This document shows positions 1,284 to 26,100 of a stretch of 64,000 bases of DNA, piece by piece (position 1 is the stretch's first letter; each line of letters begins with the position of its first letter). The position numbers were made by a program, and so were the translations under genes. The stretch is from the NCBI RefSeq assembly GCF_004010195.1, contig NC_057718.1, positions 45,124,894 to 45,188,893 of the forward strand. Direction: 5' to 3'. Below the pieces are notes generated by a model. The model saw only the letters and a program-made list of their open reading frames with translations. It was not told where the DNA came from and searched no databases. The DNA comes from Chiloscyllium plagiosum. Lineage: Eukaryota.

Positions 1284-1963
1284 GCAAAATTGTGATGGAT
1301 AAATAGTGACAAGGAAACAGGGAAAGCTTGCATACACTTCTGCAAATAATTCCAACTATTGTTTATCTCTGCATACTCAGCCAATGGACCTTGATGTGAC
1401 ATCTCTTCAAAAATATGGCCCCTCCAAAATTAAAGCGTTCATTCCACCCTCTGCCGAGGTGCAAAGATGGATTATGTACTCCTCTAAACTGATTTTAAAC
1501 TCACCAACCTCTGTCTCTGAACTGAGACTGCTACAATTGAAGCATGACAGGCAACGTACACATCTGGGTGCTTGAAAACAGAGCAATTAAATATTGGAAT
1601 AGTCAGAGGGCAATAAGAAAGAGAAAAAGGTTTCATAATGTTGACTGTCATATTAGAGGAGAGTAGTGCAAATATTTGCATATAAAAGGAATTTGTATTA
1701 TGCTTGAGATCATATTAAACATAACTAAAGACACAAATAACCGGCCATTCATCACATTACATGTACTAGGCCTTTACCAGTTCCTTTTGTCATGCAACAG
1801 TCATTACATTCTAAAGTTAATTCACCATATTATGTGAAACCTGGTTAATGTCAATCCGTGTATTCTGCAAGATTCCCAATTCTACACACAAAACTAATTA
1901 TTTAATTTTTGTCTTAGTGCTGGATGAATCTGTTATCAGTCCCGGTTAGGTACAGTATATTAC

Positions 1964-2137
1964 CTGATCTTGTAAACCTTTAAGCACAGCTTGATGCTCT
2001 TCCTGGATGCACTTTAATCTGTGTTTATGTTCATCTAGATCCTTCTTGAGGACATCAGTGATCTGAAGTTCATTTTGAAAATATCCAACATCCTTTTCTA
2101 ACTTGTTTTTTTCTGATTGAGAAATTTCTAGCTGCAA
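1964..2137 (-). CDS. CENPF: CENPF exon 15-like, copy 3, 174 nt
   Basis: aattttag|TTG and CAG|gtaata; ORF 1946..2137. Confidence 0.8.
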
Positions 2138-5100
2138 CTAAAATTAAAGGCAATTTTTAAAATGGAGACAAACACATCTAAAATATTACTTCTATTGCTA
2201 TTTTTTCATTCTTGTATTGAATCTTTTACTGACTTTTCAAGGAATCAATGAATAATTAGCCTCCATTTGCCTCCATTACAAAAAAAAAGAAATGATGTTC
2301 TGGTTAGATTCAAGACTGCAGTCACAACTAATTTCTTAATACCAGGAAGTGTAGGTGGCTAAGTTATCGTAAAAATAGTGTCTTTTTTAACTTTACAAAA
2401 CCCATTCCTACAATCAATACTGCTGTTTTTTCGTAAATATTTACTTTGGTCACAGTTTTATAGATAAATACCAAATTGCTTGCACTAAAAAAAATCCAAA
2501 CTTATACTTTATCACATTGGTGAAAACTTTGATTTTTGCTGGAATTTTATGATACTGAACCTTAAAACTTTCTGTCTGACTTCTAAACTCTTCAAATTGT
2601 GCAGAAATCAAGTTCTTCTCCACATCATATTCCTGCTGCATTTTCAGAATCTTTTCATTGGCTATAGTTAAGTCATCCTGCAGTTTACGATTATTTTCTG
2701 TCCGATCATTTACCTGAAAGATAGCCATTTTATTGATTACTAAACATTACAGTTGTTTGATCATTTTACCAAGTGCCAATATCTTGTCATGCATTTAATG
2801 TGACAATATCAAAAGTTACTGTGGAAAAAAAAGTTTCATTTATAATATAAACATAATTGCTTTAAGACACATTTGATAACAGTGGTCCAGATTTTGCAGC
2901 CACATTAGTGAAATACATTAGCTAGTTGGCTAGAGACTCTCTAGTTCCAGCAGTGCCAGGACACAGTAGTGACCACTGGAGTAAGTACTAGAAGTTCACT
3001 TAAAACTGAATACGTCTTTGACTTTAGGCATTACGAATTCATATTTCCATCACTAATACAAATGTAATGCCAAGTCAGGGACAGCTCCAGGTGATACGGA
3101 CATCAATTAAATAGCGTGAATAGTCAACCACATGGAAATTCTCATAGATAATAAAGCTGACAGTAAAATTCATTTGTAATGCCCTCTCAATGATGTTTAC
3201 AGAAAGCAAAAATACACATTGGAAGCTGAAATACTGGGAAATATTTTATGTTCCGTCACCAGCATATATGAAGTTTAAGAATGAATTTACATAAAATAAA
3301 GCAGCCGGTCAACGCATAACCTTGCTACACATGCTTGACCCGTCTCCCATATGACCATGGGTGGGAAAGTGACCACTTCAAAACCTCATTCCACCTCTGT
3401 GGCTGTGAAGTATGCACCTGGGGAACAATCAGCCAGTCTAACAGCGGGTAGGAAGGGGGAATACTACCTCTTCTGGTAAAACTCCATGGCTAGCAGGGAC
3501 ATCCCTGCACTCTCAAGATGATAAATTCTCATGTCATTAAGGTCACCACCAAGCAGTATTACACTACAGGGAAGCCAGATTTGAAGTCAGCGAGGTGCCA
3601 ACCAATTTTTCAAACGGCATGAAAGGAATATTTTCCCCTACAAATTCATCCATTATTAATACACTTATATTATTTATAGTACACAAATATAAAATTAATT
3701 TTCAATGGGCCAAGTGGTTGTTCAATAATAGTTACGAATATGTATGCTATTAAATATACAGTTGCATATTATTAGCAAATCACTACCTTTTTCAGACTTT
3801 AACAATAACATTACACAGGAAAAGGGAAGTCCTCATCCTTTCAGTGATTTGTAAAAAAAAATTGTACTGAGTGCTCCAACAACATACAGGAGCAGGCAAT
3901 CACTTGACAGCAGCTTTTGGATTTTCGTGTTGAATTGCATATATCTGAAGACCAACATTGAATAATGATGAACACCAACTCTTTCACCATTATTAAATTA
4001 CTTTATCTCGGAATATAGTCTGGTAGCCGTTCAAAGATCCTTATGTGTAACCAGGTATATAGATACATAGGGAGTAGGTTTGCTCGCTGAGCTGTAGGTT
4101 TGATATCCAGACGTTTCATTACCTGGCTAGGTAACATCATCAGTGGCGACATCCAAGTGAAGTGAAGCTGTTGTCTCCTGCTTTCTATTTATATGTTTGT
4201 CCTGGATGGGGTTCCTGAGGTTTGTGGTGATGTCATTTCCTGTTCGTTTTCTGAGGGGTTGATAGACGGTATCTCGATCTGTGTGTTTGTTTATGGCGTT
4301 GTGGTTGGAGCGCCAGGCCTCTAGGAATTCTCTGGCATGTCTTATATAGATACATTTACAGTATTTACACTGTCATGTTTACCTGATGTTTATGAAATCA
4401 GTGACAGCACTATTTTGCCACCTACATTTAAAAAAAACCAAAGCCAAAAACTGGAAATTTTGTATGAAGTATACAAAAATCAAGAAATACTAAATATTAA
4501 GCCAAGGAACAAGAAATGGCCTTCTGCACTTGACAAAACACCATCTATCATTGGTAGAAAAAAAATCAAGCCTTCTCTCAAAGTTTTTATTCATTATGAT
4601 ATTATGTTAATCTTCCCTTTAGGCTGCAAGGACCTCTTATCTCATTCTGGAACAAATAGGCTGTGTGTGACCAGTGTTCCCTTTGAGATGCATACATGTA
4701 TGGAGATACAGCAAAGAACTGCACAATGCAACAAATGTGCCCCAAAACAAAGAGAGACATTTGGGACAACATTCCTGGTAAAGTCAGCATTTATTACCCG
4801 TCCCCATATGCCTGTAAATGGGTGACTTGCTATACCACTTCAAAGGGCAGTTTAAAGCCAACCAAAGTGCAGTAGGTCTGAAGTCACATTCTGACCAGAT
4901 CACAAAAGGTGGCTTTCCTTTCCTAGTATAGGATATAACATATCTTTTTAGGGAAGTCCTGTAGTTATGTGCGCACTATTACTGGTACTACTTTTAAAAT
5001 TCCAGGTTCCTTTCTAATTGAAGCAAAACCCACGGTAGGGTTTGAATTCAATTCGCCCAATCATTAGTCTGGACCACTGGACTTTTGATATGGTAGCAAA

Positions 5101-8100
5101 ACCACTCTGCTAGCAATTCCAATGACTTCTTCCTTAAAATTCTATTGCCACACCTCATTCTCTTTTTCAATACAGGTTTAAAATCCAAGGTGGTACTCTC
5201 CCATTTTCAGACAAAGTACAAAAGCAGATAAGTTTCGAGGAAGGAAACCTGCAATCTATGATTAAGAGAATGTTCACCATAGGAAAACCCATTAGATCTT
5301 CAAGAAATTGGGCTGTAAATTACTTGCTGTTGGTCTTTTTATTGGATTTAAGACCCATGTTGAGACTCTCCCGGCCACCAGCCAAACAGAGCAACACCAG
5401 AATTTGGCAGCATCATATCAGAGGCTGTGGCTGCTGCCAGTATAACAGCCCCTACACCCCCAGTTTAGGAAAAGGTGACATTACAGGGAAGTAATGGCCT
5501 AGTGGTATTACAACTATATTATTAATCCAGAGATCAGATAAGGTTCTGGAGACCTGGTTTCAAATCCTGCATGGACTATGACATAATCTGAATTCAATAA
5601 GAAAATCTAAATGAGAAAATCAATAAGAGTCTAAACTGTTGTCAAATGCCAGAAAAACCCATCTGGTTCACTAATGTCCTTTAGGGCCGAAACTGCAGTT
5701 TTAACCTGGTCTGACCTCCAGGTGACTTCAGACCCACAGCAATGTGGTTGACTCTCAACTGCCCTCTGTGCAATTAGGGACGGGCAATAAATGCTGTCCT
5801 AGCTAGTGATGCCCACGTCCCATGATTGAATAAAATCTTCTTGGTAGAGGCTGCAGTTACAGAGAGGCAAGGGATTGCTCTCATCAGCGAGCTGACCATG
5901 AAAAATGACATTTGGCCAATTTGACCATAAGATTGTGGGACTCCCTCCCACTTCTACACCCATAAATTTCCCACCCACCCATTCCAGTTAACCAAATGGA
6001 TAGAGTAACTCTTATTCATTCCGCCCGGAGCTGCCCAGGTAGGTCAAAATCCTTACAGTTTTTAATTGACAATTCAGGTTTTACTTGGTAAGAGGGCAAG
6101 AATGTGGGTATTAGGCCTTCCGGTTTAGCACTGAATTTAAACAAAGCTGGTGAGTTTTGGTCCATCACTATACCAGTTAATCAAGTTCCCTTCCTGCCTT
6201 AGCACCCAGAAGATTCTGCTCCAAGACTCAGGAGGAGTATGGCATATTTTTCTCTGTTTTAAAATGTGATTGCAGACACTACCTGGATAGAAGGCTAAGG
6301 GTTTCACCATATTGGCCAACATCTCATCTTATCAATCTCCAATGTCTCTGTTAAGCTTAGTAATGGGAATGCTTTGTATTTTTGAAGTATCTTGGGGCAT
6401 TTTCTTTATTAATGATGCTCTATCAAAGCAAATGTTCGACATTGCGATTACAATATTGGTCAGAGCATTTGCTCATGCCATTAATGTTTGCTTTGCTTAA
6501 TTTATGAATATATAAATCATTTCTGCTACGAACTTGCAATTACTTCATGAAAGTTTCCAATTATGACAACTAAATAACATTGAAACCATTGTAAATCTTT
6601 CAAAGGCAATGCAAACTTGTTAGCTGGAACACTATTTGTACTAATATTCCACTGCAACATTTTCACTGGGAGTCAGTACGTCAATAATGACGAGGTAAAC
6701 GTAAAGGACTGAAGTTACTACAAGTAGGTCAAGTGTCATTTTCGTCAAGTGTCATGGAAGCTTTCTCTACACGAGGCCGAGCAGGTTTTCTCACATGATT
6801 ACCCCAAACACACTTCATTAAGTACATGCTGCATCCCTATGGCATTCTTCGCATTCATGCTACCCAAATCTCTCACTCACCATAGGTACAAGTAGTCGCT
6901 ATTTAAGATCTCTTGCACTGGTGCCATTTTGAACAGCAGCCATGTCCCCAGTCAAATGCTGACAGCCTGGATTTGCCCTTCAGCACACATGCTGTGGGAC
7001 TGCATTGACAATCCAACATTTCTCAAGGCACATACGTGGCACAGCTGACAGTTCAGTGCAAAGACAATTGTACATTCCTACACTTGTTGCTGTTTCAGCA
7101 TCAAGTCATACAGTTTACCTGGCCTTTAGTGACAACCCATTTTACAAAATTATCTCGGTCAGTGCTACTCTTTCCCAATGCACAATCCCCAATGCTGCAC
7201 TGCAATGAAAGATGCCAGTGCACTTCAAAGTGCAGCACTGCAGTGCAGGTGCAAATTGTAAGTGGATCGGACATATAGGTCTATCTGCTCTAATGCAAAT
7301 TCGCTGTAGCAATTTACAAATTAGGGACAATGATTCTAAAACGCAAATTTTTTAAATGTGTTGGTTATAATGGATTACATCGGCAACACTTTAAGCACTG
7401 TTTCTAAGGCACAATTATTCTATAACGTGCAGTTGTACAAGAACACATCTAGAAAAACTATCTGTATGCCATGAAGATATAGAGAAGCTGGTACTTGATA
7501 GATTCAACTTTCCATGACCACAGAGTACTCATGGCACATACTCTCAGATGTTGGCGATTGAGGTCTAGAGGAAAAAGCGTAACCATTTGTGACATTCATG
7601 ACTGTCTAGTGTCTATACGGCAAATGGGTGAGATGCAATGATGAATTATGTACTCCTCTAAATTGATTTTAAACTAACTAATTTCTGTCTCCGAAGTAAG
7701 GCTGCTACAATTGAAGCATGACAGGCAACCTACACATTTGGGTACTTGAAATTGAGTAAATAAAAACCAGAATAGTCAGAGAGCAAAAAAAAGAGAAAAG
7801 GATTTCATAATGTTGACTCTCATCTGGGCAGAGAGTAGTGCAATTATTTGCATATAAATGGAAGTTGTATTATGCTTACGATCATCTTAAACATAACTAA
7901 AAACAGAAACAACCTGCCATCCATCCCATTACATATAATTGGCCTTTACTTGTACAAAATGGTTCCTTTTTGTCATGTGACAGTCATCACATTCTAAAGT
8001 TAATTCACCATATTATGTGAAACAAGGCTATAGACAGTTCTTGTATTTTGCAAGATTTCTAATACTAAACACAAAACTAATTATAGGCATGCCCTGCTTT

Positions 8101-11100
8101 TTGAAAGTTCATTTTACACCACTTTGCTTTTATGAAAGACCTACATGGGTACCTGTTTTTGCTAACCAAAAGAAATCCAAAGAGCATTTTCATTTTTACA
8201 CAAAAAAACAAAATTTATCCCATATAAATGAATGCTTCTTCGCGTTATGCCATTTCAGCTTACGAAAGGTTTCATAGGAATGATCTACTTTTGGATAATG
8301 GGGGATACCTGTATTTAGTTTTTGTCACAGTGCTGGATGAATCAGTTATCAGTCCCGGTTAGGTATAGTATATTACCTGATCTTGTAAACCTTTAAGCAC
8401 AGCTTGATGCTCTTCCTGGATGCACTTTAATCTGTGTTTATGTTCATCTAGATCCTTCTTGAGGACATCAGTGATCTGAAGTTCATTTTGAAAATATCCA
8501 ACATCCTTTTCTAACTTGTTTTTTTCCGATTGAGAAATTTCTAGCTGCAACTAAAATTAAAGGCAATTTTAAAAATGGAGACAAACACATCTAAAATATT
8601 ACTTCTATTACTATTTTTTCATTCTTGTATTGAATCTTTAACTGACATTTCAAGGAATTAATAAATAATTAGCCTCCACTTGCCTCTATTACAAAAAAAA
8701 ATGCTGTTCTTGTTAGATTCAAGACTGCAGTCACAACTAATTTCTTAATACCAGTGTAGCTGGCTGAGTTATCGTAAAAATAATGTCTTTTTTTTACTTT
8801 ATAAAACCCATTCCTACAATCAATACTGCTGTTATTTTGTAAATATTTACTTTGATCACAGTTTTGTGGACAAATGCCAAATTGCTTGCACTAAAAAAAA
8901 TCCAAACTTCTTATACTTTACTGTTGATCACATTGGTGATAACTTTGATTTTTGCAAATGTCAGATTGTTGGAATTTTATGATACTGAACCTTAAAACTT
9001 TCTGTCTGACTTCTAAACTCTTCAAGTTGTGCAGAAATCAAATTCTTCTCCACATCATATTCCTGCTGCATTTTCAGAATCTTTTCATTGGCTCTAGTTA
9101 AGTCATCCAGCAGTTTACGATTATTCTCTGTCAGATCATTTACCTGAAAGACAGCAATTTGGTTGATTACTAAACATTACAGTTGTTTGATTATTTTACC
9201 AAATGCCAAAATCTTGTCATGCATTTGATGTGACAATATCAAAAGTTACCATGGAAAAAAAAAGTTTCATGTATTATTAACATAATTGCTTTAAGACACA
9301 TTTGATAACAGTGGTCCAGATTTTGCAGCCAGCAATGTAGTGAAATACATTAGCTAGTTGGCTAGAGACTCTCTAGTTCCAGCAGTGCCAGAAACAGTAG
9401 TGACCACTGCAGTAAGTACTAGAGTTCACTGAAAACTGAATACGTCTTTTGACCGAAGTCATTATGAAGTTCATATTTTCCATCATTAATACAAATGTAA
9501 TGCCAAGTCAGGGACAACTCCAGGTGATACAGATATCAATTACACAGCTCGAATAGTCACCACATTGGGGGCAAAGTATTGGGGGCAAAGTACTAGTTTG
9601 GATTGAAAATTGGTTGGCTAATAGGAAACAAAGGGTAGTGATAAACGGCTCCATTTCGGAATGGCAGGCAGTGACCAGTGGGGTACCGCAGGGATCCGTG
9701 CTGGGACCACAGCTTTTTACAATATATGTTAATGATATAGAAGATGGTATCAGCAATAACATTAGCAAATTTGCTGATGATACAAAGCTGGGTGGCAGGG
9801 TGAAAAGTGATGAGGATGTTAGGAGATTACAGGGTGACCTGGACAAGTTAGGTGAGTGGGCAGATGCATGGCAGATGCAGTTTGATGTGGATAATTGTAT
9901 GGTTATCCACTTTGGTAGCAAGAACAGGAAGGCAGACTACTACCTCAATGGAATCAATTTATGTAAAGGGGCAGTACAGAGAGATCTGGCAAGCATGCAG
10001 GTACAGCAGGTAGTGAAGAAGGCTAATAGCATGCTGGCCTTCATAACAAGAGGAATTGAGTATAGAAGCAAAGAGGTGCTTCTGCAGCTGTACAGGGCCC
10101 TGGTGAGACCACACTTGGAGTACTGTGTGCAGTTCTGGTCTCCAAATTTGAGGAAAGATTTTCTGGCTATTGAGGGAGTGCAGCGTAGGTTCACGAGGTC
10201 AATTCCTGGAATGGCAAGATTANNNNNNNNNNNNNNNNNNNNNNNNNNNNNNNNNNNNNNNNNNNNNNNNNNNNTCTTCACCCAGAGAGTGGTGGTTGTG
10301 TGGAATGCTCTGCCACAGGGGGCAGTGGAGGCCCACACTCTGGATTCATTTAAGAAGGAGTTGGATAGAGCTCTCAAAGATAGTGCAATCAAGGGTTATG
10401 GAGATAAGGCAGGAACAGGATACTGATTAGGAATGATCAGCCATGATTATATTGAATGGCGGTGCAGGCTCGAAGGGCTGAATGGCCTACTCCTGCACCT
10501 ATTGCCTATTGTCTATTGTCACATGGAAATTCTCATGGATGATAAGGCATACACTAAAATTCATTCAAAATGCTCTCTCTATGAAGGTTACAAAAAGCAA
10601 TAACACATACTTGAAGCTGAAATATTACGATAAGTTTTATGTCCCGTCACCAGCATGTGAAGTTTTTGAGTGAAGTTACATAAAATAAAGCAGCTGGTCA
10701 ACGTATAACCCTGCTACACACACTTGTCCAGTCTCCCATATGACCATGGGTGGGGTACTAACCACTCCAAAACCTTATTCCACCTCTATGGCTGTGAAGT
10801 ATGCACCTGGGGAACAATCAGCCAGTCTAACAACGGGTAGGAAGGGGGAATACTACCTCTTCTAGTAAAACTCCATGGCTAGCAGGGACATCCCTGCACC
10901 CTCAAGATGATAAAATCTCAAGTCATTAAGGTCACCACCACAGCAGTATTACTGCAGGGAAGCCAGATTTGAAGTCAGCAAGGTGCCAAGCAATTTTTCA
11001 AACGGCATAAGAGGAATATTTTCCCCTATGAATTCACAGTATTATTAATAGATTTATATTATTGATAGTACACAAATATAAAATTAATTTTCAATGGGCC

Positions 11101-14100
11101 AAGTGGTTGTTCAATAATAGTTATGAATATGTATACTATTACACAGTTGCATATTATTAGCAAATTGCAACCTTTTTCAGATTTTAACAGTAACATTACA
11201 GAGGAAAAGGGAAGTCCTCATCCTTTCAGTGATTGTTAAAAAAAGTAATTATACTGTGAGTGCTTCAACAACATACAGGAGGAGAGAATCACTTGACAGT
11301 AGCTTTTGGATTTTCATGTTTAATTGCATATATCTGAAGACCAGCACTGAACAACAATGACCATTAACTTTTTCACCATTATTAAATTACGTTATCTCAG
11401 CAATATAGTCCTGCATCCCTTCAAAGCTCGTGCAATTTGGAATACATGTAAAGCCAATAGCTTACTTTCTGCCAACTATTGTCAAAAAAAAAGCTTAGCT
11501 TAAAAAGAGTAAAGATGTCTGTGTGGAGTTTGCACATTCTCGCCATGTCTGTGTGGGTTTCTTCTGAGTGCTCCGGCTCTTTCCTACAGTCCAGAGATGT
11601 GCAGGTTAGGTGAATTGGCCATTGTGTTCAGGGATATGCAGGTTAGGTACATTAGTCAGGGGAAATGTAAGGGATTAGTTCTGGGTGGATTACTCTTAGG
11701 AGGGTCAGTGTGGACTTGATGGGCCGACTGGCCTGTTTCCACACTGTAGGGATTCTATAGCTTACAGTTTTCACACTGTCATGTTTACCTGATTTTTATG
11801 AAATCAGTGACAGCACTATTTTGCCACCTACATTTAAAAAAAACCAAAGCCAAAAACTGGAAATTTTGTATGAAGTATACAAAAATCAAGAAATATTAAA
11901 TATTAAGTCAAGGGTCAAGAAATGGCCTTCTGCACTTGACAAAACACTCTCAATCGATCATTGGTAGAAAAAAAAAATCAGGCCTTCTCTCAGTTTTTAT
12001 TCATTCACAAGATATTATGTCAATCTTCCCTTTAGGCTGCAAGGATCTCATGTCTCATTCTGGAACAAATAGGCTGTGTGACCAATGTTCCCTTTGAGAT
12101 GCATACATGCATGGAGATACAGCAAAGAACTGCACAATGCAACAAATGTGCCCCAAAACGAAAAGAGACATTTGGGACAACATTCCTGATAAAGTCAGCA
12201 TTTATTACCCGTCCTCATATGCCTGTAAATGGGTGACGCTATATCACTTCAAAGGGCAGTTTAAAGCCAACCAAAATGCAGTAGGTCTGAAGTCACATTC
12301 TGACCAGATCACAAAAAGAGTGGCTGATTTCCTTTCCTGGAATAGCATATAGCATGTCTTTTTAGGAAAGTCCTGTAGTTATATGCGCACTATTACTGGT
12401 ACTACTTTTAAAATTCCAGGTTCCTTTCTAATTGAAGCAAATTCCCCAGTACCCACGGTAGGGTTTGAATTCAATTCTCCCTCCCATTTTCAGACAAAGT
12501 CCAAAAGCAGATAAGTTTCGAGGAAGGAAACCTGCAATCTATGATTAAGAGAATGTTCATCATAGGAAAACCCATCTTGGGAGTTCAGTTCGTTGTCACT
12601 GGGAATCAGTACATCAATAATGACGAGGCAAATATAAAGGAGTGAAATTTTACTACAAGTAGGTCAAGAGTCATTTTCATCAAGTTTCATGGATGCTTTC
12701 CCTCTAGGCCTAGCAGTTTTTTTCTCAGATGATTACCACAAATACACCTCATTATGTAAGTACTGCTAAGCAAATACTCACTCATTGGGATCCTTTGCAT
12801 TGGTGCCATTTTTGAACCACAGCCATGTCCCCAGTCAAATGCTGGTAGACTTGATTTGCCCTTCACCACATGCTGTGGGACTGCATCGACAATCCAACAT
12901 TTCTCATGCCACATACGTGGCATAGCTGACATATCACTGCACAATTATACATTCCTGCACTTGTTACTTTTTAAGCATCAATTCATAAAGTCACAGCCCA
13001 TCTTACAAAGTGATCTCAGACACTGCTACTCTTTCTCAATGCACAATCCCCAATGCTGCACTGCAATGAAAAATGCCAGTGCACTTCAAAGTGCAGCACT
13101 GCAGTGCAGGTGCAAACTGTAAGGGGATTGGACATTCTGCTATAAGTTGCATTCTGTTAACGCAAATTCGCTGTAGTGATTGACAAGTTGGGGACAATGT
13201 TCCTAAAGTGTGAACTTTTAAAATGTGTTAGCTGTGATGCAATTACATCGCCAACACTTTAAGCACTGGTTCTAAAGCACGATAATGCCGGGTTGGACAA
13301 GAACACAACCATCACAATGTAGAAAAACCACCTTTATGCTATGAAGATATAGAGAAGCTGGTACTTGATGGCTTCAGTTCTCCATGAACATAGAGTATTC
13401 ATGATGCGTACTCTGAGATTGATGTCCAAGATGGAGGTCCAGAGGAAAAAGCATACCCGTTGTGACATTCATGTCTGTCTAGTGTCTATATGGCAAATGG
13501 GAAAAAAGGAGACTGCATACTAATGAGGCATGATTACATAGTAAGGAGGGTGATAATCCACTCTTGCCCTTCACGAGTCAGAATCTTGTCTGGACATTCA
13601 GCATTTGGTTAGAAAATCTGACCTATTAGTCTCAAACTAAAAATCATCTCACTTAATTTTCTCAAATTTCTCACCAAATCTCACATCCTTCAGGGCCTGG
13701 AAAGATTCCACACAAATTGCATCAAAGATCTACAAAAATAAATCTTCCTTGTAAATTGATAAACGAAGTATGATAGGCTGCATACTCAGCCTCATAATTG
13801 TACTCCTTATACACTCATGAGTGTGGCCAAATTCAGCTCTAACTCCATTTTTAAATTTGTTGCTGACACCACCACGGTGGATTGGATCTCAAACAACGAC
13901 GAGCCAAACTACAGGAAAGAGATAGAAGAGTTTAGTGGAACGGTGTAAAGACAACAATCTCTCCCTCAATGTCAGTAAGGCGAAGGAGCTGGTCATCAAC
14001 TTCAAGAAACGGAGTGAAGGACACATCCAACAATATTGATGGTGATGATGTGAAGGTAGTCGAGAGCTTCAAGGTCCTAAAATATTATCAATAATCTGGC

Positions 14101-17100
14101 CTGCTTCGTCCACATCGATGCTTACAGTCAAGAAAGCACACCAACATCTCTACTTCCTCAGAAGGCTAAGGAAATTCACATGTCCACCGTGACTCTTACA
14201 ATTTTTATAAATAGCATCTTATCCGAATGCATCACAGCTTGCAATGGCAATTGCTCTGCCCAAGACCACAAAGAAATCACTGAGAGTTGTAAATGCAGAC
14301 CAATCAATTAAGCAAACCACCCTTCCAACCATTTACTCCGTCTATACTTCTCACTTCCTCAGGAAAGCAGATAACATAATTAAAGACCCATTCCACCCCA
14401 GTTATACTCTCTTCCACCCTCTTCCATTGGGCAGAAGATATAGAAGTTTGAAAACACATACCAACAGATTCAAGAACAGCTTCTTCCCTGCTAATATCAG
14501 ACATATGAATAGACCTCTCATACATGAGAATTGATCTTTCTCTGCACCTTCTCTGTGGCTATAACATTATATTTTATATTCTGTTCTATTATCCTAATGT
14601 ACTTATGCAAAGTATGATTTGTCTAGATAGCATGCAACACAATTTTTTTCATTGTATCTTGGTACATGTGACAATAATAATAAATCAAATCAACAGGGTA
14701 AATCATAATGGAATTATTGCTCTGATCCAAGTTTGGGAGTTAAAGGAACATGGGAACAGCAATATGTCATTCAGTCCTTGACGCAAATTCCATTAATGAG
14801 ATCATTGCTAATCTGTGGCCTATGTCCAAATACCTGACTTTGGCCCATACCTGCTAACAAAAATTTATCTATCTCAGATTTAAATTAACTTCTGATCTAA
14901 TAACAAGTGTGGACTGTGAAAGAGAGTTCCAGATCTCTACCACCCTGTGTATGTAGAACGTATATGCTTTCTAACATCTTTCCTCAATGATCTTACCCTA
15001 ATTTGTAGACTATGCCCCTAGTTTTAGAATCTCCAGTGGAAATAGTTTATTTTTACCTTGTCTTTTCCTGTTAATAGCTTGAAGATTCCAATCAAATCAT
15101 CTGCTAACTTTCTAAATTCTAGAGAAAACAGACTTAATTTATACAATTTCTCCTTATAACTTAATCCTTGAAGTCCAAGTACCATTCTTCTAAAACTACT
15201 ATAGTCCCTCCAAGGACAAGGTATCTAAGATATCTTCCCAAGGTGTGGTGCCAAGATCTGCTGAACAAAAGGAAGCGAGGATAAGACAAAGACAGTTTAT
15301 CTAAACTATAATTTAAAACTGAAATGGAGTTTGGTGTATGTAATGCTACCAATCTGTTAATTGCCTAGTTCAATATGTAATTAACACAAATCTGTTGAAT
15401 GTCTACTTTAAATGTTGCAGTGTACTAGGAATATGAGGAAGAGTTAGCCAAACTTGGTGCACTACAGTGAAAGCACTGGGTGTGTGGGGATTGCTGCATT
15501 GAAGGGGTTGTTTTACACACAAAACATCACCATACAAATTTATAAAGGATTGAGATGAATGTGGTTAGAAATCCAATATACTAGGTTTATAATTTATTTT
15601 ACCAAACATTGAGAGGAATATCTAGTTTATATTGTACTCTTTGGCTAACTATCACAGTTTGAAATGGACACGTGCACAAGTGAAAGACACTCAGAATTTG
15701 TGCACGATAAAAGGCATGGTCAATTTAACCTCTCCTAACGGTGTTCAATTTACATTAAGAGACATATGTTGCATGTGGCCAGATTCCATTATGTTTTACC
15801 TTGCAGATAGCATCCTTAAATGCAACATTGATTTCTTCTTTTGCAGCCTTTATCTTTTTGATTTCCATGTCTTGTGCAGTAAACTGTAATTCCATTTCGA
15901 CCATTTTCTTTTGGTATGACTGTACTTGAACTTCATGCTAACAAATTAAAGACAGCACTTGATAAGGAAATATTTGTCAAATTAAGTATGTACAAAGTAC
16001 TCTGACATTAATACTAATGGCTGATAAAGTAAAATAAAAAAATACTAGCCAACAAGCATTTAATCTCCGAAAAGTCCAAAACATGTCAAATGATAATTAC
16101 AATCAAATTGCAACAAATTTCAATGAATGATTTACACCAGTCTAACTTTGACGACTAATTAGCTAAAAATAAATATTATCTCTCACAAAACCATTTATGC
16201 AATGTTCTATTTAGGAAAAGTATTTTTCTTTTACTATTCTTTCCAACGAAAAACATATTTATTTTCTTAGAGAACTCAGAATTCATCTTCTAAAAGGAAG
16301 CAGCTTGTTCACTTCATTTCAAAGAATGAGAAATAACAACAAAACTGTATGCAGGAGCAATACTATTTCAAAGAATTTCTCAAATAAATACTTAAAATCC
16401 AAGCAATCTGAAACAGCATTTTGATTAGATTAGATTCCCTACAGTGTGGAAACAGGCCCTTCAAACTTAATTCAGATTATTCATGGCTAACTACTAGTCA
16501 GGTATAAGCAGGGAATGAAAACCCCTATAGTATGTCTACATATCACAAGCAAAGAGGCAAAACAATAAACTTTCAGTCTGCATGGCTAAAGAAGAACAAG
16601 TATGAAAGAAGTGTATTCATCTGACAAATGGAAGGCAAGCTTATTGCTGAACCTGCAAAGTTTGAGAGGCATTTTTAAAACCTTGACATCAGTCTATTGC
16701 GTTCAAAGTTTCAGGAACAGCAAATAATTCACTCCCTTGCCGATTCATTCCACAGTGTGGAATGCAGATTCATACTCATTGTATTCAAACAGATAATTTT
16801 AATTCTGGAAGTGAATTAAAATCTTATGCCCGAAGACTACATTCAACAAGTACAGTAATAAGCATAGCCTCTTCATAATGTGCAAGGTTCCCTGGCATCC
16901 CTACCCCAGCTAAGAGAATGGTGTAAAGATTGCCAAGATGATCGCTAATTAGCTATTAATAGACTTGAGGTAGACGATCTTTACCTTGGGACAGCAAGTC
17001 CTGTCTAAGTTGAAAGGCAATTAAAGATCAGCAGCTCCCAAGATTTTCAACAGAATCATGCATGTTGGATCAGAATTTGTACATTTGGAAATCTTGTCAA

Positions 17101-20100
17101 TTGTTAAGATGGCAGGAACCTCTCAGATGGACAGATGATGGTAAACCTCTCAGATGGTAAAGATGATGGACAGCTGAAACTTGAGAGGCCATTAAGGGAC
17201 ACTATTGTATGGAGAAATATAACTTTGGGAGGGGCACTCAGATGGAATCAAGGGGCCCAATTAAGGAGGATAATCCACTGCCCATCATCAGCTCTTGCAG
17301 GGAATCTGCTGGACTATTTCGGTGGGGGCCTCTTCTGCTGTTGGTTGATGCTCCAATCCTTAAAACCTTTTTGACAGGAAAGCATAAAATCCAGACCATA
17401 ACCTATTTCCAACCATGACCCATGCAATTGTACCTTGCAGCTTCTTGCATGGTCAAACAGAAACGTACCCATAAATCAAAAAGATATATGAACACACAAA
17501 TGGTGGACTGAAAGTACCTTGGATCATGCAGTGCTCCTGAGACTCAGGCTTATTTCTAGATTTATTTCTAGATTTCTTACAGTTATTAAGAAATATTTGG
17601 AGGGAGATGGGCCAAGCCCAGGTAGGTGGGGCTAGTTTAGTTTGGGATTGTGTTCGGCATAGACTGGTTGGACCAAAGAGTCTGGTTCTGTGCCATATGA
17701 CTCTATGAGAATAAATATTGGTCTGGAAACAGGGAAAGCTCCCACTTCTCTGAATAGTATCACAAGATCTCATCCTCTCCAACAAAGGACTGAATAGGCC
17801 TCTGAATTAACTTATCTGTGCATAGTTTCCTCCATACTCTACCAAGGTGCCAGCCTGGATTATGTGCTAAGGGTTCAAAATCAAATTTAGATTTGGAGGT
17901 TACTATTGAGCCACAAAAAGAAAAGTACATGTCGGAGAAGAAGGACAATTAAAGACTGGAACACTCTGGCTGTAAATAGAAGAAGGAAGAAATTCGATAA
18001 CATTGACCTTCAACTTCATTATTCTGAAGAAGAGTAGTTTCCAAGTATTATGGTGTCTGGTGGAACAACACAGGGTAAACCCTCCTGCTTAATTTAAAAC
18101 CAGCAACACCAAAAGATTTATCCTATACAGTAATCTGTAAAGAGCGAGTGGCCAAGAACTATTTAAAGTAAAAATTAACTACTTTATTCCTTAAAGTATA
18201 ACAGAAAATAATGAACTAAACACTATTTACAATTCAAAGTTTGTGCGAAGATTTGTAGCTCAGGTGCTCGATGTTGTGGTTCTGTTCGCCGAGCTGGAAG
18301 TTTTTGTTGCAAACGTTTCGTCCGAACACCGAACGGAGAATTCACTACAAGGGTATACAGGAAAGCCACACACACAGACCAAGTCCTAAACTATGAAAGT
18401 AACCACCCCAACACACACAAACGAAGCTGCATCAGGACACTATTCAAAAGGGCCACAACACACTGCAGTACACCAGAACTGCAAAAAGATAAAGAGGAAC
18501 ACCTATACAAGGTATTTGCCAAAAACAGATACCCACGCAACTTCATCAACAGATGCCTAAGAGAAAGACCACGGAACGAGGGCATACCACAACCAAAAGG
18601 ACTAGCCACACTACCATACATCAGCAGCATCACGGAACTGACAGCCAGACTACTGCGACCACTAGGACTCATAACGGCACACAAACCAACAGCCACGCTC
18701 AGACAACAACTCACAAGAACGAAGGACCCGATACCCAACATGAGCAAGACAAATGTAGTGTACAAAATNNNNNNNNNNNNNNNNNNNNNNNNNNNACAGC
18801 TGAAACTGACAACCGGTAGCGGCAGGGACAGACCACTATAAACACCGGAGGAAACATCAAAGAAGCGCTTCGCAGGAGGCTCCCAAGCACTGATGATGTC
18901 GCCTAGCCAGGGGACGAAACGTTTGCAACAAAAACTTCCATCTCGGCGAACAGAACCACAACAACTATTTACAATTTATTTCTATAACTTATCTTTTAGC
19001 TTCCCTTCTATAATACTAGTCCAATAAAACTCCCAATTAAAAATTTACAAAACAACACTTCTTATCTCAAAACCAGGCAGCTGCAGGTTCTTGTCTTCGG
19101 ATCTTCCCGTGTCTTCTTTTCTCCTTGTTAGGAAGTTCTGCGTTACAGGTACTGATCGAAAAGGGACTTTTAAGAGAACTATTTTTACATGCTGGGGCTT
19201 ATCAGTTCTCCTCTCAGCTGTTCAATTTTTCCCAGTCTTATACACCAGAGCATTGGATTGTGTCATTGGCTTTTAAGATTGTCAATATACTCAATTCAAA
19301 CATGATTTGAGTTTGATATATTTCAGATATAATTTAAACTGATTGACCGAATTCGAATTTGTTTTTGTCACCAAGCAACGAACGAATCAAGTGGTTCGAC
19401 TCAGTGTTACATTGTTACCATTTTTGAGTAAACTTGGTGCTGGGTCCGGTAGTTCTGCTGCTTTTAACTCTCTTAAAGGTATACCCACACCTTCATAACC
19501 CTGGAGTCATCTTAAATCATCATTATATTTGGTAGCAACCAATCATTCCTCTCATTACATCTTATAGGACTTTGCTCATACATAATAGTTCACATTTTGA
19601 TTCTGACAGTATTTATGTTCTAAAGGCAATTTGAGATGTTAAGCACTGGGATGATCAGAAAGGGGTTATATTTTGAAAGGTTTCCATCTCTGAACACAAA
19701 ATTAATAGTTTGAGCTTTATCTTAGCACTGAATCTTTTATCAAACCTAATTTGGTGCAATAAGTTACCTGATCCTGTAAATCTTTAAGCACAGCTTGATG
19801 TTCTCCTTGAATGCATTTTAGTCTTTGTTTATGTTCATCTAGTTCCTTTTTTAGGACATCAGTGATCTGTAGTTCATTCTGAAAATATTCAACATCCTTT
19901 TCTAACTTGTATTTTTCTGATTCACAGATTTCTAGCTGCAACTAGAGATAAAATCAATTTTAGAATGGAAAGAATCACATTGAAATCACCATGTCCAAAC
20001 TAACGTCCACATTATTTTCTATTATTATAGCTCATATTTTATTACAAAAAACAATAGGAGTTTTTCTCCTCAATATATCTCTCTGTTACAAAAAAATAGG

Positions 20101-23100
20101 AATGCTGTTCATGTTAAAGACCATGGTCACAAAGCTTTCCTGTTTCCCTAAACGTATGGTGTGGCTAATTTATCATAAAAATAAAGCAGCTTAAAAACAA
20201 AGCACCTGTATTATAATACTTGTGCTCATTTATCTATTTTGAATAGAAACAAATAAATTTGCAAATAGGGCTCAATTTTTACTTCCAAAGTTGGAAAATT
20301 CCTGATTCTCCAAACCCAACTTAGGAGAAAACCACCTGGAAGCTGTGAATTTCACTCTAGGTGAGCAGATGTTTAACAGAAATCGAGCTCACCTCCCCTG
20401 AAAAATAGTGCAGAGGCGGCCATAGCAATGTGAATACTAGATGCATAGAAAAAATCCAATTGAAAGATAAGACAAAAAACAGTCTGTTCACCCTTCATGT
20501 CTCCACATTCTCTATCCATAACAACTCCTGCCCCAACCACATCACTGTCTGTTGTACTCCCCAAGCAAACATATGCCCCTAACCACCCTACAATGACCCC
20601 TCACACCCCCGTGAGAATACATGCCCCTCTGCCCAGTTTTCATGACCCTTATATCAACCTACAGCCAATCATAAACACACTTGCCTTGACATCCTCCATT
20701 GCCAACCCCAGTATCCACCACAGGCATACCTCAGGAGTCATACTGAATTCAAATAAAGTTCTAATTTTTTCTTATAGACAATCAATGATAAAATCTCATT
20801 CATTACATTCAAATGATTTAAACTACCTAATCCCTTTCAAAATCACACATTTCATTCAAGTACATAATTTTTTATCAGAATATAAAAATGTATATAAACA
20901 CTTGCACTCATAACCCCGCATATAAAAACTTTTGAACAATCAAACTGTGAACTGACAGACACCAAACCTTAATAATGATAATCAGTTATGAAGCACAAAA
21001 CCTTTAAAAATCTTTCAGATTTATGCCAACAGTGTTAAAGCAAGCACTTGTTTTTATTTTAAAATTGCAGATGCTTCAATTTAAAGGGAATTTAAACAGC
21101 TTGATAGCTTAAATAGTTTATCCACTCTTTACACTTTCATATCTACTTTTAACAATCCAAAAAGGGAGTTAACTTGTCTCAAAGGTATTCCTGATCCCTT
21201 ATCTGTTTAAAAGGATACCCACTTCCCAAAGAACTCCAATAAGTTAGATCTTCTCCTGAAAGGTATAAAGCTTAAGTTACATTACAGAAAACTGGGTGAC
21301 AAAAATAACATTTGAGTGAAGACATTTTCCACACCATCTTTGTGTGAGAGACTTTGAGTGAGCACTGTAGCATTAAATACCAGAATGAACTTGCAAATAA
21401 ACAATCTTATCGCTCTAAACACACAAAAAGTTTGCTGCTGGTTCTCCAATTGTCCTCACATGGGGTTTAAAAACGTGAGCACTTTCCTTTCAAAAGATTA
21501 TTAATTATAGACAGTTTGGAAATTGGATGAGAATTTTCTCTCATCCTATCTACAATAGTGTAGCTAAATAGCTTCACATAACATATATTTGGAACTTTTA
21601 TGCTCCATGGTTTTCCATGGTTAGCAGCTTCAGTGAACTATGGATGTGCAAAGTACAACTCAATTACAGTCTCCTCCGCCCTTCTACAGGGAAATTAGTG
21701 GATGCTGAGTTTGGGGATGAGACTTTTGAAATGGGGCCATGTTAGAGAACCTCTTGAGCCAAAAATACTTTTGTTCTTATGCCCAATAAAGACATCATAT
21801 TCCAAATTTTCAATGAACAAACTTAACTAATGTGGATTTCTTGAAATTGACATTTCCTTTAACAAATGGACAATGAGCTGTAAAGAAGGAGTGAGATTAG
21901 AAATTTCTTCACTCAGAGTAGTGAGCCTGGGGAATTCTCTGCAGAGGAATCTGCTAAGGCCAAAACATTGAATGTTTTCAAGAAGGAATTAGATATAGTT
22001 CCTCAGGCTACAGTGATCAAAGGGAATAAAAGTGTGAACAGAAATCCAAGGTGAATAATCAGCCACAATCATACTGAATGATGGGGCAAGCTTGAAGACC
22101 TAAATGGCCTACTCCTATTCTCTGTTTCTATGGTAATCGAAGGTATTTAAAAACTGACTCACCGTCCAACAGAAAAATTCAACATCTGAAATGAAAAGAT
22201 ATTAACCACACATATTCTGAAAACATGAAAAAACATTCCCAAATTGAATGGGTCTCCTTTGAAACAAAGGATGTGATCAACATAATGTCCCTTGGGATGT
22301 GTCTGTAAAACAAAATGTGGCTAATCAACCAAATACCTCACTATATTTGAGAAAGAAACTGAAGTTGTGAGAAGTCACATAATAAGGAAGCTATGTTTGT
22401 CCCTTTTCAATCTTTAAAGGCTGACTGCAGAACATAAGATATGGCAAGAGCAGAAAGGCATCTGTTCTTCCTTTATGGGTCCACTAATCCAGCAAATTGA
22501 CCCCAGTATAAATACTACAAGCAACTAACTTTATGACCTGCAGAAAGTCCATCCCTTCGAGAGAATCCTGAAACGAATTTGGAATGCGACTTCAGCTGTT
22601 GAATTCACCTAAACTACGCTTTAGGAATGAAGGCGTCTTCGTCATCAGGCCTGCAACATGTGTTTTCCAGAATAAGAAAATCATGTGAATAATTAACTAT
22701 TCTTTTGCTGATAACCTGTAAAAACACAATATTCTCACCAACTGCACTCTCTTTGTGTGTGAGACTTTGAGTGAGCACTGTAGTATTAAATGCCAGAATG
22801 AACTTGCAAATAAACAATCTTATAGCTCTAAACACAAAAAGTTTGCTGCTGGTTCTCAAATTATCCTCACATGGGGTTTACAAACATGAGCACTTTTCTT
22901 TCAAAAGATTATTAATTATAGACAGTTTGGAAGAGAATAGGAGTTTCAGCAATTTTCTCTCATCCTATCTGCAATAGTGTAGCTAAATAGTTTCACATAA
23001 AATATATTTGGAACTTTTAAGCTTTTTGCTGATTGAAATCGTAAAAACTTTGACCTTTGGCAAATGAGAAATTCTTGGACTTTTTCTTATACTGAACCTT

Positions 23101-26100
23101 AATGCTTTCTGTCTGATTCCTGAATTCTTCAAGTTGTGCTGAGATCAAATTCTTCTCTGCATCAAATTCCTGCTGCATTTTCTGAACCTTTTCACTGGCC
23201 ACGGACAAATCATCTTGCAGCTTACGGTTATTCTCTGTAAGATCATGAACCTACAAGACACGTTGGTTCATTATTAAACTAATGTTGTAGCATTTCAAAA
23301 AGATTATTGATTGGATTTCCAAGTGATAATATATTAATGACACAAAAGGTTAACTTGGAAAGGATGATCTGCACCAATATTAAAATTGTTGAGAAAGGAT
23401 ATATTTTGTTGAAGACATGCTGTTTGATATGGCACTTATTTAAGTGATGGCCAAAATGTTATTTTGGTTTGGCAAGACCATTCTGTTAGTTGTGAACACC
23501 TCTTATGTTGCTTCTGCCTGGTGGCATTGTGAAACGGTTAACTTCACCACTGATCAAATTTCAAATCACTAGGCATCTACTAACATCGATATTACCAGGG
23601 CAGAATATTTAGACAATCAGATTGGAGAGTTATCACAGATAAGTAACAGGAAGTACAAAGATCCAAAAACTTTTAATTTACACCAATTTTACAGAAGCTA
23701 AACCAAGAGGACTTCATATCAGAGACTGAAATATCATAACTTAAAAATATTATGAAGACTGCCTGTTTTATTTTGATGTATGCTTGAGATCTGAAATGGG
23801 GAAAGGGGCTTTAAAAACCAAAGATTGTGGAAGTGATTGCTGTACTTCTTAAAAGTAAGCTACCAGCACTCATAAGCACTGTTTATAGCATTGTTTGCTT
23901 TACCAATGGGGATGTTTAGCTGCAGGCAAACTGACACCAGAAGGTGTATACAAAGTGAGATTCGGCCAGCAACTAATAGCTGATTGGTCTCCGGTGCAGC
24001 GACCAATTATTCATGCCAAAGGCTTTCCGCCTGCCCATAACTATGCGATTGACTCCAAGGCGACTGAACAGCTTGTGGGTATTAATAGTATATACAGAAT
24101 CCTTTGGACCATCAACAGGGGAGGTGGTGCTTTTTTCTGAGCAGTAAAATACATCTAAAACCTGAGGAAAGCTAGTTTATTCTCCTTCACCAGTTGCTGT
24201 ATGCTGTTGCTTTTAAGCAATAAACAAGGAGCTTTATATATTGTTAATCAGTCATCTGTGCTTCCTGCAAGCAAGTGAAAGTACATAGAAAAGAGAGACC
24301 ATGGAGCGGCATGTCCTGGCAAGCCGAAAGGATCGCCTCAGCAAACCCTGTGGACAGAGACGATTGAACCAGCTTCCCAAACTTTCCCTCCATCCATTAC
24401 ACCAATTTATTTTGCGTGTATCTGTAATGAGTGTGTATCCGGAGTTTTAAAAGATAAATAGACTTTTACCAGTAGAGTTATAGTTCATATTTGTTCACCT
24501 ATACCTAGAATCTATTTTCAATAGTAATTTTTGTTAAATACAGAATCCTGACTGTGCTTTTTGTCAACCTGAGTCTAAAAAGAGATGTCATTTGAGAAAT
24601 TTTGGGCATTTTGATAAGATTTTTTATTCCTGCAGGAATATCGGCCTTGATTTCCAGCATGCTACTCCAATTATTTGTGATAATATTAAAAATAACAGGA
24701 TTAATCTAATGGAAAAAATATGGCATTTCACAGTATATAATTAGTTTTCCAGGGCAAACAGGATATACAGGACCAGTTATTAGTCAGTATATTATTAACC
24801 TAATAAACCTGTTTGTAGATGTTATTGCACACCCTCTAAAGCAGGTGGAACTTGAACATAGGTGTCCTGGTTCAGAGGTTGAGACACAACCACTGTGTCA
24901 CAAGAGCCCCACTTTAATAGGGTATCCTGTGAAGGAGTAGGGGAAAAATGAGCAGACATTTTTTGATTTCCACATTTAACTGTAACGTGGAACACAGAAG
25001 CAACTGTCAGTCTTACAAGGCAATGACGGCAAGTGGCAACAGTTTTGCAGACAATTTAAATATCTGGGCTAATAAATTCCTGTTCCCATTCTAAAAACCA
25101 GCAAATTAGAAAACATATAAAACTAATTCCTTAATCTTTGCCTGTCATATAGAGAAAATTAAGACTTAAAAACAGGTGAAGAAAAGGATGAATGAACTTC
25201 TTTTATATTTCACAAAACAGTTAAATGGGAACATTGACTGTATTGATCTATTTTGCATAAGGTCAATAATGGCATTGGATTTTTTATGTTCACTCATGGT
25301 TAAAAAGTAAACTATGTTACAAACTGCAGATTCCATTTTCACATAGTCAGGGAATAACAAATGATCTCATGCATCTCTCAAAATTATTTTAGTTGGTTGT
25401 AACAGCATGGGTTGGAACTTACCATTTTCTTTTAAACTGTAGGATAACATGTTAAGTGGCGAGTAACATGCCACTCCAAACTGGTGAGGTAACGCAGAGT
25501 GTCTGCCATTCAGCTCACTAAAACAATTGAGGGTGAGAATCTCACCCAATCACAGGCCTTTACACTATTGACCAGCAATAAAAAGATAGATTTTGTTTTC
25601 TTCTTGTGGGGCAGGGTATGGAGATAGGGGGTTTTGAGCAAGGGAAGGCAAATGGCTTTCAGAAACCATTCCTTTGTCAGCCATCATGTCTCCAATTGAT
25701 CCCAGATTAGGGCAATGGGAGACCCTCCAGCAAATCAGTAAACAGGTTACCATAATTTCTCAGTTAGGAAGTCAGCTGATGGAGGTAGCATGTTGAAGCC
25801 CTTAATTGCGAGTAAAAGAAAGCTAGCCATGGACCTTCTTTTTGATCTCACAGAGGTAGCTAGAAGGGGTTGAGTTTCCAGGGCACAGGCGAACAATTAT
25901 CTCCCCTTCTCATCATTTCTAGCAAGGGGAAAATCTGTCCATTAAGTACTCAGCTACCTAGATGCCCTTTCTAAATTTCCACCACTAACCTGTGTTCTTT
26001 CTCTTTCTCCCCTTTTAAAAACTACACTAATAAATTAATGATCATAGGGGTACAGAGTATATTTCCCAGTGTCTAAATGATATGGGCAGGGGTACCCCAG

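Follow-up and report, generated by a model that had tools for sequence, protein, structure and literature searches.

Tandem copies of CENPF exons 14 to 16 in galeomorph sharks probably lengthen a coiled-coil spacer of the CENP-F rod

Lineage-restricted, repeated and partly independent amplification of in-frame exons has been described for the teleost gene piccolo b, where it was attributed to unequal crossing-over (PMC3484663). Tandem exon duplication within a gene, with possible alternative splicing, is also the arrangement described for mutually exclusive exons (PMC9741552, PMC2581893), and coiled coils are described as spacers or rulers, that is, rod segments that hold functional sites apart (PMC5082667). 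Here we analyzed a stretch of 64,000 nucleotides from the bamboo shark Chiloscyllium plagiosum (contig NC_057718.1, positions 45,124,894 to 45,188,893; "the window") that carries part of CENPF, the gene for CENP-F (mitosin), and in which a block of exons from the coiled-coil rod is present in several copies. In our assessment these tandem copies of exons 14-16 probably add 264 residues to a length-tolerant coiled-coil spacer, through gain and loss of whole exons and with no new function.

The copies resemble those of piccolo b in being lineage-restricted, repeated, partly independent and in frame. They differ in that the copied block comprises two or three exons that encode plain coiled coil and occurs two to three times, and in that another lineage has lost these exons. 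In contrast to mutually exclusive exons, the longest CENPF isoform model includes all copies additively. The C. plagiosum RefSeq proteins (XP_043551747-55) share with vertebrate CENP-F the gene and the domain order PF10481, PF10473, PF10490, but contain three copies of exons 14-15 and two of exon 16. Symmetric exons are well known to undergo in-frame duplication, and RefSeq models already include the shark exons; the literature searched, which covered few subscription journals and excluded supplements, gave no account of how many copies of these CENPF exons sharks have.

The CENPF exon copies

The exon-13 stretch searched was 100% identical to C. plagiosum CENP-F XP_043551751. A 778-codon frame upstream of the duplicated exons matched the CENP-F leucine-rich repeat domain, PF10473 (CENP-F_leu_zip; E 6e-39, 133.7 bits against a cut-off of 34.5), and orthology to CENP-F was supported by precomputed PF10481 and PF10490 matches on XP_043551751. 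The Pfam match and the identity bear out the CENPF assignment made in a first-pass annotation of this DNA. Exons 6-13 of the gene map into the window. Outside it, the Bub1-binding, Miro-binding and CaaX regions were recognized in the annotated protein by alignment, on sequence resemblance alone, and the shark C-terminus is CKVQ, as in vertebrate CENP-F.

For brevity, exons 14, 15 and 16 are called A, B and C, followed by a digit for copy order. Intron 7 of the 20-exon human gene follows c.1068 (PMC13634044); with this anchor, and with the count continued from the window exon whose last residue is 356, A is exon 14. The exon numbers proposed earlier therefore hold. The exons concerned are the following.

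27010..29315 (5' boundary approximate), minus strand: CENPF exon 13, a large exon that encodes coiled coil, including the CENP-F leucine-rich repeats; donor CAG/gtataa
23098..23250, minus strand: A1, first copy of exon 14, 153 nucleotides, 51 amino acids; isoform X1 residues 2512-2562
19768..19941, minus strand: B1, first copy of exon 15, 174 nucleotides, 58 amino acids; X1 residues 2563-2620
15800..15937, minus strand: C1, first copy of exon 16, 138 nucleotides, 46 amino acids; X1 residues 2621-2666
8991..9143, minus strand: A2, second copy of exon 14 (old duplication), 153 nucleotides; 78% amino acid identity to A1, ratio of nonsynonymous to synonymous divergence (dN/dS) 0.10
8377..8550, minus strand: B2, second copy of exon 15, 174 nucleotides; 86% amino acid identity to B1, dN/dS 0.11
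2561..2713, minus strand: A3, third copy of exon 14, 153 nucleotides; differs from A2 at 6/153 nucleotides, including the 11th, and at 4 amino acids
1964..2137, minus strand: B3, third copy of exon 15, 174 nucleotides; differs from B2 at 1/174 nucleotides, a synonymous change

All seven duplicated exons, placed as in the first-pass annotation, have lengths that are multiples of 3, contain no stop codon, are in phase 0 and have intact ag and gt ends. Neighbouring homologous blocks that share one orientation, keep open frames and have phase 0-0 ends are the signature of tandem duplication, and tblastn matches among the A copies and among the B copies (E <= 4e-23) were far beyond chance. No further degenerate exon copy was found within the window. 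Within the intron between A1 and B1 there is also a 276-nucleotide local duplication, 91% identical (21337-21604 and 22750-23023).

The earlier advice to look past the window for the final exon 16 proved sound: in the annotated protein a second copy occupies residues 2885-2930 of isoform X1 (3323 amino acids), which reads A-B-C-A-B-A-B-C with the final C beyond the window. The gain over a single-copy shark is thus 445 - 181 = 264 residues (155 + 109) rather than the 218 first calculated. The exon first described as "16-like" is present as such but is a true copy of exon 16. C1 was 93% identical to the first copy of the whale shark and 54% identical to the terminal C copy, and it was nearer the single-copy sharks (61% and 67%) than was the terminal copy (57% and 54%).

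Two duplications and coding constraint

The three A-B pairs differ greatly in age. Self-comparison by blastn delimited two recent units:

7630..13501, minus strand: first copy of the recent tandem unit (intron, A2, B2, intron), from self-blastn; a fragment of a long interspersed nuclear element and a short N run occur only here
1456..7628, minus strand: second copy of the recent tandem unit (intron, A3, B3, intron), from self-blastn and breakpoint sequences

These units are joined head-to-tail near 7629, at a clean, gap-free junction with no clear microhomology, and are 76-92% identical across intron-containing blocks. The alignable flanks of the old pair are short and lie only around the exons. 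Synonymous divergence (dS) between A1/B1 and the later copies was 0.71-0.76, with nonsynonymous divergence (dN) of 0.08 and dN/dS of 0.11, compared to a dS of ∼0.05 and a dN/dS of 0.30 in the recent pair. This difference in dS confirms the two rounds of duplication, one old and one recent, that had been proposed.

In the old pair, 20/266 nonsynonymous sites had changed versus 28/61 synonymous sites (Fisher P value, 1e-11). The exons of the recent pair differed at 7/327 nucleotides and the adjoining introns at 70/896 (P value, 1.5e-4). Divergence in this pair falls at the exon edges (0.6-3.9% versus 6.5-9.1%) and is patchy in intron blocks farther away (4.9-17.3%). The duplicated exons are under coding constraint; in the recent pair gene conversion is a confounder.

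It is very unlikely that the newest copy (A3/B3 or A2/B2) is passive and mostly skipped, remaining intact through gene conversion and the slow substitution rate of sharks. The patchy divergence across the unit fits such a copy, as do the replacement of Leu by Arg at a core position predicted in A3 and, in Hemiscyllium and C. punctatum, species-private residues common to the copies, as conversion predicts. However, the frames and splice sites are intact, divergence drops at the edges of the exons, and three 14-15 units are present in the proteins of 3/3 hemiscylliid species. An assembly artefact, in which an uncollapsed haplotype appears as a second copy, can be set aside with near certainty. 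Although there is a short N run within one copy and two B exons are nearly identical, the introns differ by 5-17% and carry copy-specific insertions, the junction between the units has no gap, and C. punctatum and Hemiscyllium proteins have the same three 14-15 units.

Elsewhere in the window, positions 48160-51752, with related pieces at 4068-4343 and 18215-18960, hold repeats, nested and both inverted and direct, whose open frames resemble reverse transcriptase. We take the repeats at 48160-51752 to be, probably, remnants of a Penelope-type retroelement.

Copy number among cartilaginous fishes

Copies were counted with A, B and C profiles over annotated full-length proteins, rather than genomic DNA, of 19 chondrichthyan species. 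All 10 galeomorph sharks had two or three copies, and the other 9 species (Heptranchias, Pristiophorus, six batoids and Callorhinchus) had at most one. Two full modules were present in Rhincodon, Stegostoma, Cetorhinus and Mustelus. C. plagiosum and C. punctatum were ABC-AB-ABC and Hemiscyllium was AB-AB-ABC, so that the three hemiscylliid species all had three A-B units; the Hemiscyllium model without the middle exon 16 might reflect either genomic loss or skipping by the model. Scyliorhinus canicula had three modules, S. torazame was AC-ABC-ABC-C, and Heterodontus was ABC-ABC-AC. A full-length protein search with the module returned 20 proteins, all chondrichthyan. An equal module count in other vertebrates, which the first-pass annotation had said would speak against its proposal, was found only among related sharks.

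A tree of 31 rows was built, from which Rhinoraja, Narcine, Amblyraja, Leucoraja, bony vertebrates and the extra terminal C of S. torazame were omitted. The first copies and the later copies of carpet sharks formed two clades (support, 100/100 and 100/99); therefore, the old duplication predates the split between whale, zebra and bamboo sharks. B2 was 98% identical to the second copy of the whale shark and zebra shark. Copies 1 and 2 of catsharks grouped together (100/99), and therefore the third copy of catsharks derives from a first-type module. Since the third copy of bamboo sharks derives from the second type, the two arose in separate events. An alternative topology that grouped all three window copies together was rejected by the approximately unbiased (AU) test (P value, 8e-66).

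In carpet sharks, Cetorhinus and Mustelus, the later A copies have in common a valine in the motif DVEKN that is not found in first copies or outgroups, a sequence character that would favour one origin for the three orders. Residues private to a species but common to its copies in Hemiscyllium and C. punctatum suggest that gene conversion or independent copying may have taken place. The old duplication is common to the other carpet sharks and probably to most galeomorph sharks.

Rod position, splicing and spacer length

Human residues are numbered here by the 3114-residue entry, which matches human isoform X2 except at exon B. The duplicated module corresponds to human residues 2611-2774. Nde1 binds N-terminal of 2351, and residues 2826-2894 form the Bub1-binding domain (PMC7199848); the Nup133 sub-domain, 2866-2933 in 3210-residue numbering, is 2770-2837 here (cited in PMC6028960), and the Miro-binding region is 2977-3020. 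The module thus lies between the Nde1-binding region and the Nup133 and Bub1 sites. In shark X1, the Nup133, Bub1 and Miro regions each have a single aligned counterpart, located past the final C (26/68, 32/69 and 30/44 residues identical). These alignments indicate that the copies lengthen the rod and duplicate no mapped site, and they confirm the proposed placement of the copies immediately before the kinetochore, Miro and microtubule-binding region. A CENP-F fragment starting at residue 2688 (2592 here) was seen by electron microscopy as a 40-nm dimeric rod (PMC6028960). The duplicated module is inside this fragment. Coiled coils rise 0.1485 nm per residue, and the rod length in the micrographs implies ∼0.13 nm per residue; at these rises the 264 residues would therefore add 35-39 nm.

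No copy contains a proline. Heptad register was modeled with a simple home-made score, which is heuristic. In this model each A copy begins at heptad position a, following g, and the C-A junction is in register. The model set a shift 7 residues ahead of the B2-A3 junction; this junction would therefore be either in register or a four-residue stutter. Coiled coils tolerate shifts of 1, 3 or 4, and shifts of 2 or 6 strain the coil (PMC5082667). The copied units, of 155 and 109 residues, amount to shifts of +1 and +4, both of the tolerated class. The A-C joins of Heterodontus and S. torazame misfit the register model.

The length of the segment was compared across vertebrates as the number of residues that separate the exon 13 end from the conserved motif SCKQL, a distance measurable in 132/150 full-length proteins. 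This spacer typically ranged from 76 to 491 residues, a ∼6.5-fold variation. It was 189 residues in 66 entries (most mammals and Callorhinchus), 181 in single-copy sharks and rays, 335-336 in two-copy sharks and 433-491 in the longest three-copy forms, with 445 in C. plagiosum. Sturgeon and paddlefish, with 118-121, lack ∼65-70 residues of the segment. The shortest spacer, 76 residues, occurred in 13 entries, including 9 from rodents or rabbit and 3 alternative entries of bat, yak and lemur. In 16/16 rodent and rabbit entries shown, the exon 15-16 sequence (113 residues) was absent, one of them having unrelated filler there; rabbit and squirrel lack human residues 2661-2773. Mouse exon 17, the second-last exon, starts at G2871 (PMC6428352), and mouse exon numbering is thus two below that of the 20-exon human gene, which fits the loss of two exons. 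The single 14-15-16 run that had been stated for mammals is accordingly found in most entries but not in those of rodents and rabbit. The length conservation expected of a molecular ruler was not observed, in contrast to ruler coiled coils, whose length is typically conserved.

Internal repeats were found elsewhere in CENP-F by diagonal scan; self-BLASTP gave no repeats. Most mammals carry two copies of a repeat of 182 residues (26 heptads); several bovid, deer, elephant, sengi and Echinops entries carry three, and Tenrec ecaudatus carries four. Rays and skates have an array of 21-residue (three-heptad) repeats at residues ∼1430-1740, longest in Narcine, which the diagonal scan did not find in sharks. 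Five batoid cluster representatives have no precomputed match to PF10490 (C-terminal Rb/Miro-region), unlike sharks and Callorhinchus.

Relative to isoform X1, the C. plagiosum RefSeq models X2 to X6 skip C1; A2; B1 and C1; one A-B unit; and A2 plus one A-B unit, respectively. All six, which are models rather than reads, retain exon 14 or 15 in at least two copies, and the introns around the duplicated exons are at least 423 nucleotides long; by these models, mutually exclusive exon use is not indicated. A weak search for shorter protein fragments (30-1826 amino acids) spanning the module found none among 8000 scored candidates. From the constraint and the annotation, it is likely that the exon copies are spliced in and translated within the dimeric rod.

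The skipping models raise the question of whether the exons are regulated cassettes, with isoform choice setting rod length in steps of 46, 109 or 155 residues. In addition to the five skipping isoforms of C. plagiosum, there are several in catsharks and horn shark, human isoform X2 lacks residues 2662-2720, which is exactly exon 15, and every exon is in phase 0. However, the isoforms are predicted models. B2 and B3 differ at a single base, so that mis-mapped reads could produce skipping models, and a skip of a single 14-15 unit is hard to tell from such mis-mapping. In the register reading, moreover, skipping of exon 14 alone (X3 and X6) would be a two-residue shift, of the class that strains the coil (PMC5082667). 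Regulated splicing seems an unlikely explanation.

It is similarly doubtful that selection in galeomorph sharks favoured a longer rod, or additional copies of an unmapped binding surface carried by exons 14-16, for instance to extend the reach from the kinetochore or nuclear pore to dynein regulators. Selection would be consistent with retention in 10/10 galeomorph species, with third copies that arose separately in two or more lineages, with the strong constraint acting on every copy and with the 98% identity of B2 to whale and zebra shark second copies. The absence of exons 15-16 from rodents and rabbits, however, argues that there is no essential site there in mammals, and no partner is mapped to exons 14-16 in the available text of three CENP-F studies (PMC7199848, PMC6428352, PMC6028960). 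The length of CENP-F also varies elsewhere, through the 182-residue repeat of mammals and the 21-residue repeats of batoids. A broader proposal, which we also consider improbable and slightly more so, is that exons 14-16 are an adjustable extension, multiplied and spliced in or out in galeomorphs (giving ∼27-73 nm from Bub1/Nup133 to Nde1) and mostly removed in rodents. If true, this would make CENP-F a kinetochore spacer length-tuned by evolution and splicing.

The explanation that we prefer, gain and loss of whole exons in a length-tolerant spacer, would operate as follows. Because exons 14, 15 and 16 each have phase 0-0 ends, copying any block of them preserves the frame. The tree places the old duplication of 14-15-16 before the whale, zebra and bamboo sharks diverged, and a single early galeomorph origin is probable; the later head-to-tail copy of 14-15 was seen in three species of bamboo and epaulette sharks and may have a single origin. 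Both may have originated by non-homologous tandem duplication. Similar copies would then be likely to favour unequal crossing-over and patchy gene conversion, which would account for independent third copies in catsharks and horn shark. Selection would hold the copies helical and in frame, and they would shift the Nde1/dynein-regulator region ∼35-39 nm farther from the Nup133 and Bub1 anchors, which are not duplicated. We infer continuity of the rod and a near-neutral tolerance of its length.

Several points weigh against this explanation. In the recent pair, with just 7 changes and a dN/dS of 0.30, gene conversion could pass for purifying selection, and exon inclusion is predicted from gene models and constraint. 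With counts taken from annotated proteins, unannotated copies in "single-copy" species would go unseen, and the proteins available for comparison included none from birds, reptiles, amphibians or teleosts. The catshark and horn shark copies are without the shared valine and cluster by lineage, and a single galeomorph origin was neither shown nor rejected (AU P values, 0.23 and 0.28). Coiled-coil spacers are usually length-conserved (PMC5082667). Furthermore, all 10 galeomorphs retain copies, with no return to one, which fits selection as well as tolerance.

The pattern, in which one segment of the CENP-F rod was doubled or tripled several times in galeomorphs and mostly deleted in rodents and rabbits, was not found in the literature searched. 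It provides a natural length series of 76, 189, 336, 445 and 491 residues for testing CENP-F as a length-dependent spacer, a question that bears on corona stripping and on dynein recruitment to the nuclear envelope. Mouse and human CENP-F differ by ∼17 nm in the length of this segment, which matters for mouse models of human CENPF disease.

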